NCBI GenBank assembly: GCA_000004985.1
Contig: GG739148.1
Strand: one strand, 5' to 3'
Length of the DNA: 7,306 nucleotides
Source of the DNA: Naegleria gruberi
Lineage: Eukaryota
This document shows positions 154 to 910 of this stretch, in pieces; positions within the stretch are counted from its first letter, which is position 1; every line of letters begins with the position of its first letter. The position numbers and the translations under genes were made by a program. The notes under the pieces are model-generated. The model saw only the letters and a program-made list of their open reading frames with translations, did not search any database and had not been told where the DNA came from.

Positions 154-388
154 TCACTTCAATCAACAAATTAAACATGTACATGCTCCATTCGATGTGT
201 AGAGATTGAATATCAAGTTTATTTTAACTTTCATATTCAAGATTTCATCCCTTTCATACCATCTAGTCAACTGAGTAACATGGATGAAAATCTGGAAAAT
301 GACCTCTCTATGAAACACTTCCATCATGTTTAACAACTCAAATAATGTTGTAGAATTCAATTTTAGAGTTTTAAAATGTAATTTGACA
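154..388. repeat. Subtelomeric tandem repeat, copy 0. It is 5'-truncated, covering roughly the last 235 bp of a ~305-bp unit, and is joined directly to the telomere.
   Basis: Motifs in 389-696 recur here at offsets of about 301-309: gatgtgtag (194-202) versus gatgagtag (503-511); atca..tttatt.taact (211-235 versus 519-545); agtcaact (265-272 versus 566-573). Local identity is about 65-75% with small indels. Confidence 0.5.
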
Positions 389-696
389 ATATAGTAAGGT
401 AAAGGTTGATATTTTAAGGTTGACTTTAAGGATTGAAAGGTGAAAATCATGATATCAAAAACATCACTCCAGTCAATAAAACACATATGAAAATGTTGTA
501 AATGATGAGTAGACACCGAATTTATCATTTATTCTAACTGGAAATATCTCTAATATATACTTGGAAGTCAACTCTCTCTATAATGTACAAGTTGTTCCGC
601 CAAGTTACCACTCTCAAATTAAATCATATAATCATGCTCTAAGTCTCTAATAATATATATACTTCAGTTTTCAGACGTTCTAGTGAACATTCCATC
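389..696. repeat. Subtelomeric tandem repeat, copy 1, full unit of about 308 bp. The unit boundary is arbitrary; I anchored it on the conserved 14-mer ATATAGTAAGGTAA.
   Basis: atatagtaaggtaa(a)gg.tgat...aaggttgacttt(g)aaggat at 389-437 repeats at 697-745 (offset 308, about 80% identity over about 50 nt). cgaatttatcatttattctaactggaaatatctct (512-546) matches cgaaaatatcatttatttaatgatttgaaatctct (821-855). agtcaact at 566 matches agtcaatt at 870. Confidence 0.6.
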
Positions 697-910
697 ATAT
701 AGTAAGGTAAGGAGTGATTTATCAAGGTTGACTTTGAAGGATAGGGCAATATTCAATAAGAGAACTACATCCTCAATCAGAAAAATACATATCAATCGAT
801 TGGAAATCATTAGTACATCTCGAAAATATCATTTATTTAATGATTTGAAATCTCTCCTTGACTTCTTTTAGTCAATTAAGACAATTAAGGATGTAACAAT
901 AGAAAAAGTT
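697..910. repeat. Subtelomeric tandem repeat, copy 2. It is truncated by the assembly gap, so further copies may lie inside the gap.
   Basis: Same anchors as copy 1 at an offset of about 304-309. The sequence runs straight into the N run at 911. Confidence 0.55.

Follow-up and report, generated by a model that had tools for sequence, protein, structure and literature searches.

A diverged, non-coding tandem repeat array beside the telomere at one chromosome end of Naegleria gruberi

Introduction

Tandem repeats beside telomeres are common in eukaryotes. In Plasmodium falciparum, an AT-rich protist, the telomere is separated from the first subtelomeric genes by the non-coding repeat elements TARE1-6 (including Rep20), the order of which is conserved between strains, and the chromosome ends undergo truncation and healing. 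The Plasmodium TAREs extend over tens of kb, are present at all chromosome ends and are built from short units (of 21 bp, for example), and they are not known to be similar in sequence to the Naegleria array described here.

At least one account describes long tandem satellite arrays as a common subtelomeric feature (PMC3276127). Like telomere-associated sequences (TAS) and subtelomeric tandem repeats in general, such as the CL14/CL34 satellites of potato, the Naegleria array lies immediately proximal to the telomere and is built of non-coding units, each a few hundred bp long, in head-to-tail order, and it shares with them a rapid evolution and a copy number that changes by unequal exchange. 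Unlike these satellites, it shows only ∼2.5 visible units, which are 54–60% identical and unhomogenised, and it is seen at one end. It can also be compared with old, non-homogenised tandem duplications (minisatellite-like or higher-order remnants), since its units keep their identities across genomes (84–97%) while neighbouring units are 53–69% identical, and one unit appears to have been lost by a single unequal crossover. Such duplications, however, are not normally tied to telomeres, whereas in Naegleria the unique sequence of the chromosome ends with the array.

For N. gruberi, TTTGGG has been listed as the candidate repeat of the telomere (Fulneckova et al. 2013, PMC3622300), and our search of the literature returned no description of Naegleria chromosome ends or subtelomeres beyond this candidate repeat. 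The locus analysed here provides a first concrete picture of one Naegleria chromosome end, comprising a telomere, an old tandem array of 305–310-bp units, and genes.

Results and Discussion

Organisation of the chromosome end

The stretch of DNA that we analysed (the window) is an entire N. gruberi scaffold of 7,306 bp, which contains a telomere tract, the repeat array, a run of N and two partial genes (Table 1). The C-rich strand of the telomere tract runs 5′ to 3′ inward from the scaffold end, which is the orientation expected of a left chromosome end. Given this orientation and the match to the TTTGGG type, we conclude that the tract is a genuine left chromosome end. Two 5-nt CCCAA variants, at positions 80–84 and 109–113, break the otherwise regular CCCAAA tract. 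The telomere, the array and then the genes for a MACPF and an RGS domain protein follow one another within about 6–7 kb.

Table 1. Coordinates of the features discussed in the text (window positions unless L001 is given).
Feature	Position	Strand	Remarks
Telomere tract (CCCAAA)n	1–153	+	25.8 copies, 97% match (Tandem Repeats Finder)
Unit W1, 310 bp	152–461		starts at the telomere junction; base 152 fits both telomere repeat and unit
Unit W2, 305 bp	462–766		60% identical to W1
Unit W3, first 144 bp only	767–910		cut by the assembly gap
121-codon open reading frame	163–528	-	reads towards the telomere; judged non-functional
AGTCAAC motif, four exact copies	265–271, 419–425, 566–572, 727–733	+, -, +, -	
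Degenerate AGTCAAT	870–876	+	fifth copy of the motif
Assembly gap, 5,008 N	911–5918		N run
MACPF/perforin-domain gene, 3′ part	5919–6904	+	Pfam; 67-nt GT-AG intron at 6260–6326
RGS-domain gene, 3′ part	6939–7306	-	Pfam; runs off the scaffold end
399-aa predicted membrane protein gene	L001 197–1396	-	C-terminal Cys-rich transmembrane segment; beside the MACPF gene

The array directly follows the telomere and, when phased on the common start CATCAC(T/C)(T/C)CA(A/G)TCA, forms 2.46 head-to-tail units (310 bp, 305 bp and a cut unit of 144 bp) between positions 152 and 910. A repeat search identified a 64-nt family with three copies at 160, 470 and 774 (spacings of 310 and 304) and a 39-nt family at 389 and 697 (spacing of 308, 85% identical). 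Exact matches of 6–8 nt were concentrated at offsets of 300–309, and ungapped identity showed maxima at offsets of 308 (z 4.2) and 614 (z 5.0). We evaluated gapped local alignments of the units against 300 dinucleotide shuffles. Units 1 and 2 aligned over the full unit length with a score of 144, compared to 56 ± 8 for the shuffles (z = 11), while z was 4.7 for units 2 and 3 and 2.1 for units 1 and 3. Comparison of the region with itself by BLASTN gave an E-value of 1.4e-11. The array was not called by Tandem Repeats Finder in the window because the copies are too diverged, with MAFFT identities of 60% (W1–W2), 56% (W2–W3) and 54% (W1–W3). The DNA is AT-rich, with a GC content of about 0.29.

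These results bear out the original prediction, made from the sequence of the scaffold, of three head-to-tail copies at a distance of about 301–309 bp that directly adjoin the telomere, the measured periods being 310 and 305 bp. The comparison with shuffled sequence that it had proposed, with attention to a diagonal at about 305 bp, was run, and the repeat exceeded the dinucleotide shuffles. Of the limits it gave (154–910), the end was correct, as the N run starts at 911, but the best phasing begins at 152, at the junction itself. The identity of 60–80% that it gave for the sequence between conserved islands holds at its low end only, since whole units are 54–60% identical.

We also looked within the unit for a half-unit dimer of about 152 bp, in either inverted or direct orientation. 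This arrangement was rejected, as z was about 1 or less and the likeness ended at a 7-mer. Features of the kind found in transposable elements were looked for in the window, and the array showed no extended inverted structure and no match to a protein family. No Rfam family was matched by the array.

Related arrays in two other genomes

Relatives of the array are known from two short contigs only, of 502 and 709 bp. The shorter one, L125 (VFQN01205255.1), is 90% identical to window positions 170–679. The longer one, L124 (ENA ERZ929261), originates from the same metagenome as L001, a contig that matches the window beyond the gap and is described below. L124 can be aligned to the window in either of two registers that differ by one unit (74% over 175–859 and 79% over 146–550), and is therefore also a tandem array.

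A comparison of individual units showed that W1 is 96% identical to X1 of L125, W2 is 84% identical to X2 of the same contig, and W3 and unit C of L124 share 97% identity over 93 nt. Across genomes, matching units are thus 84–97% identical, whereas paralogous units are only 53–69% identical to one another. This indicates that the duplications predate the split of these genomes and that the copies have not been homogenised. The W1–W2 arrangement is common to the third genome, represented by L125. Unit A of L124, which lies distal to unit B, is 69% identical to W1, and at least four unit types (A, W1, W2 and W3) can be distinguished by inference.

Unit B of L124 is a hybrid. Its 5′ two-thirds are about 90% identical to W1 and its 3′ third matches the 3′ third of W2, and 109 of the 127 informative sites fit a single switch from W1 to W2 at alignment column 203 (W1 ∼347 / W2 ∼655). 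With W1 and W2 sharing no more than 60% identity, this unit is parsimoniously explained only by an unequal crossover through which the L124 lineage lost one unit length.

The A/B junction of L124 aligns with the junction of telomere and W1 in the window. With a slash marking the junction, the window reads ...CCCAAACC/CATCACTTC; in the alignment of the two, the letters are ...CCCAAACC/CATCACTTCAATCA in the window and ...ATCAAATA/CATCACTTCAATCA in L124.

From these alignments we infer that L124 and L125 represent the same locus in related genomes, and are orthologous rather than paralogous to the array in the window. In the MACPF exon, the genome from which L124 was derived and the window differ by about 2% (six of the seven substitutions are synonymous, and dS is about 0.08); in the intron the difference is about 4%, plus an indel. 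This is compatible with a single locus, as is the divergence of 3–15% between matched segments of the repeat if these evolve neutrally or a little faster. The relatives could also be paralogous copies from other chromosome ends, since the identities of W2 with X2 (84%) and of parts of B (∼83–90%) lie below the ∼96–98% seen in the neighbouring gene and intron.

A proposed history of the array

The locus has three of the properties of a telomere-associated tandem repeat, with head-to-tail units that lie next to a terminal telomere tract and are non-coding. What the comparisons demonstrate is a tandem structure, adjacency to the telomere, presence in related genomes, a hybrid unit and an open frame with neutral substitution patterns (see below). 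We consider it probable that the window contains an old, non-coding, telomere-associated tandem array at one N. gruberi chromosome end, the units of which have drifted and undergone unequal exchange.

Several head-to-tail duplications of an ancestral unit of ∼305–310 bp would have taken place long before the Naegleria genomes sampled here separated, and the units would then have drifted to 53–69% identity without homogenisation. The array would change by the usual mechanisms of tandem repeats, and one relative appears to have lost exactly one unit through an unequal crossover between W1 and W2. Because the telomere starts exactly where L124 has unit A, the end in the sequenced strain may have been shortened and then re-capped by telomerase after ...GTGATG on the G-strand, with unit A presumably lost in NEG-M rather than gained in the relative. 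The array would have no sequence-specific function, and may at most serve as a passive buffer, a stretch of dispensable DNA that separates the telomere from the first genes.

The array is new for Naegleria but is of an ordinary, well-known kind of chromosome-end sequence, and the general view of such ends is unchanged by it. Comparison with L124 and L125 points to unequal crossing-over and to a different distal limit, and hints that, in a heterolobosean, a truncated chromosome end received a telomere de novo. The array is also useful for completing Naegleria assemblies and can serve to mark one chromosome end.

The assembly gap and the neighbouring genes

The contig L001 (2,455 bp) matches the window from its position 2055 onwards, at 95% identity (gaps counted) to window positions 5919–6318. 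Because this match begins at the right edge of the gap, the first 2,054 bp of L001 would lie within the gap. In L001 these bases contain the 5′ part of the MACPF gene and, on the minus strand, the gene for a 399-aa predicted membrane protein, and both are therefore likely to occupy the last ∼2,054 bp of the gap. No homologue of this protein other than itself was found in 5.8 billion protein clusters, N. gruberi included, and its absence from N. gruberi fits a gene that lies in unsequenced DNA. The repeat had no match in the gap-side DNA of L001. The part of the gap that could still be array is about 2.95 kb at most, and a continuation of the array into the gap is possible.

The original prediction had named a collapse of further copies as a plausible cause of the gap. 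This is unlikely, because an assembler does not collapse copies that are only 55–60% identical, unless the inner copies differ greatly from the visible ones, and because the 2,054 bp of L001 are unique genic DNA.

The spliced MACPF protein is 100% identical to P0001, annotated as "predicted protein, partial [Naegleria gruberi]", a gene model that would be partial because the 5′ part of the gene lies in the gap. Three paralogues in Naegleria are 43% (P0002), 47% (P0003) and 37% (P0005) identical. The MACPF and RGS genes are convergent, with 34 bp between their stop codons, and in both the standard code applies, with TAA as the stop and no in-frame TAA or TAG. For this reason, and because the protein match is to N. 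gruberi, we rejected the possibility that the CCCAAA tract is a Paramecium-type macronuclear (ciliate) end. Between the genomes of the window and L001, the MACPF exon differs by a 6-nt in-frame indel (window 6049/6050 versus L001 2186–2191; KYVQSEL versus KYVHIQSEL), and the intron by a 5-nt indel.

Is the array part of a multi-copy satellite?

The array had originally been described as a satellite. This term overstates 2.5 visible copies, and the 2.46 units present are 54–60% identical to each other, with their counterparts in the other genomes being far closer (84–97%). Units that are closer across genomes than to their neighbours indicate that the concerted evolution by which a satellite is defined is lacking here, and the identities of 53–69% within and 84–97% between genomes are the reverse of the homogenisation seen in satellite DNA.

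The visible units may nevertheless be the edge of a true multi-copy subtelomeric satellite that is common to many Naegleria ends, extends for kilobases into the gap, and contains homogeneous inner copies that broke the assembly. The array adjoins the telomere and runs into the gap, and about 2.95 kb of the gap are unaccounted for, but at least about 2 kb of it are predicted to be genic. Relatives are present in two other genomes, on short contigs of the type typical of assembly-breaking repeats. However, these two are the only relatives among 1.84 billion representative proteins and ORFs, where each forms a singleton cluster, and the visible units lack the homogenisation that such a satellite would show. 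Scans of JGI metagenomes, GTDB genomes and IMG/VR with the core pattern of the repeat DNA gave no matches; the metagenome collection appears to be limited to contigs of about 1 kb or more, and the 502- and 709-bp relatives would be invisible there.

A scan of the metagenomes with (CCCAAA)6 retrieved 120 DNA stretches, of which 26 carry terminal telomeres, and none of these 26 was similar to the array, which also speaks against a satellite common to many ends. Several of the telomere contigs do have diverged tandem repeats of their own, which we count in favour of a satellite. On contigs from other AT-rich organisms, a repeat of ∼148 bp with 68–70% identity (L011) and repeats of ∼99 bp (L056) and ∼50 bp (L117) lie beside terminal CCCAAA telomeres. 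This architecture is therefore commonplace. On balance, we regard a homogeneous satellite of this kind as unlikely, and favour the interpretation of an old array of drifted units.

Three further contigs with terminal CCCAAA (L080, L104 and L122) have subtelomeric DNA in common that is 75–90% identical. One contig with a terminal telomere (L078) was considered as a second Naegleria end, as its VFQO prefix resembles the VFQN of L125. Its proteins are singletons without N. gruberi cluster mates, and the contig was set aside as uninformative.

Conserved islands and the AGTCAAC motif

Five conserved islands had been predicted to be present in all three copies. Only AGTCAA[CT]T occurs three times (at 265, 566 and 870). 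The islands ATATAGTAAGGTAA (389 and 697), AAGGTTGACTTT (416 and 724) and GATG.GTAGA....GAAT (194 and 504) occur twice each, and ATCATTTATT.TAACT has a single exact match, at 524. In a permutation test of runs of identical columns against overall identity, P was 0.08 when the longest run was considered and 0.03 for the three longest together, and on addition of the fourth unit type, A, the run-length test was not significant (P = 0.42). The islands are weak evidence for sequence constraint, because the runs barely exceed what overall identity predicts.

The motif AGTCAAC is present in four exact copies in the window, all of them inside the array, against an expectation of 0.28, and none of 200 shuffles reached four. 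Successive copies strictly alternate in orientation and lie 154, 147 and 161 bp apart (about every 150 bp). We think it very unlikely either that this series recruits a Naegleria-specific end-binding or boundary protein or phases nucleosomes, or that the 121-codon frame discussed below is a gene specific to this strain that arose very recently within the subtelomeric repeat.

In a related reading, the array as a whole would be functional chromatin. AGTCAAC, or its complement GTTGACT, would bind a subtelomere-specific protein or phase nucleosomes, and the units would for this reason have been kept across genomes. The strict alternation of the four copies and their excess over shuffled sequence are in keeping with such a role, as are the degenerate fifth copy at 870 and the retention of GTCAA in the paralogues W1, W2, W3 and A. 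However, the motif is mutated to ACTCAAC in unit B and to GGTAAAC in X2, so that constraint on it is doubtful. In addition, duplication by itself multiplies any motif that a unit contains, and part of the enrichment is therefore inheritance. The conserved runs are not significantly long (P of 0.08, or 0.42 when unit A is included), and the two halves of a unit have no direct or inverted similarity beyond the 7-mer, with z about 1. A functional role of this kind thus seems to us very doubtful, and we retain the interpretation of an array whose units have drifted.

The open reading frame in the array does not behave as a gene

The array is non-coding, as had been predicted. The units contain one open frame of 121 codons, and the proposal that they are, or recently were, protein-coding, either as tandem small genes or as a young gene for a 121-aa protein (163–528, minus strand), finds some support in its length, since a longer stop-free stretch was present in only 0.2% of dinucleotide shuffles (P about 0.002, or ∼1 in 500). 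The translations of the related contigs also align with it along their whole length. Nei-Gojobori dN/dS ratios, however, were about 1 in every comparison, namely 0.98 for the half that matches W1, 1.08 for the half that is derived from W2 in L124, and 1.57 against L125. A range of 0.98–1.57, together with frames that are broken in both relatives, is not what a protein-coding repeat would show, and the substitutions indicate that the open frame evolves neutrally.

In L124 the frame contains three in-frame TGA stops under the standard code, which is the code used by the neighbouring genes, and in L125 it is cut by an 8-bp frameshift deletion. The equivalent frame in W2 and W3 of the window is broken as well, and the unit lengths of 310 and 305 bp are not divisible by three. 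Codon usage is not gene-like. The codon score of the frame was -0.07 per codon, compared to 0.12–0.43 in six Naegleria genes, G at the first codon position had a frequency of 0.15 as against 0.29 in real genes, and GC3 was above overall GC, the reverse of what is seen in real genes. No Pfam family reached the curated cut-off (there was one weak match, with an E-value of 0.069), and a single-sequence AlphaFold model of the product had a pLDDT of 44.7.

An exhaustive HMMER search with the translated frame against 1.84 billion representative proteins gave three matches (P0006, P0007 and P0008). Two of these are ORFs that had been called within the repeat DNA of the short metagenome contigs (P0006 on L125 and P0007 on L124), and both are singleton clusters. 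A word-indexed protein search with a concatenated ORF query had missed these relatives, which are 93% and 55% identical, while the exhaustive search found both. P0007 (L124 28–414) is a gene-calling artefact on a eukaryotic contig, having been translated with TGA as Trp. The third match, to a protein of 1,207 aa (P0008; E-value of 2.9e-18), is the only one outside the repeat family and is spurious, as its score sums 17 copies of one insignificant match. The protein is the translation of a near-perfect tandem satellite of 204 bp (68 aa) on an unrelated contig with a GC of 0.41 (L126 3001–6624). BLASTP of the frame against two units of P0008 gave no alignment, and there was no similarity to the array at the level of DNA either.

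A coding origin of the units is therefore highly improbable in our assessment, and the data are better described by a non-coding array. The length of the 121-codon frame is an unexplained statistical oddity.

Finally, a chance resemblance between AT-rich sequences or an artefact of assembly, which the GC content of about 0.29 and the lack of a call by Tandem Repeats Finder might bring to mind, can be dismissed as having virtually no likelihood, given a z of 11 against dinucleotide shuffles and the recurrence of the same units, in the same order, in the two independent assemblies that contain L124 and L125.
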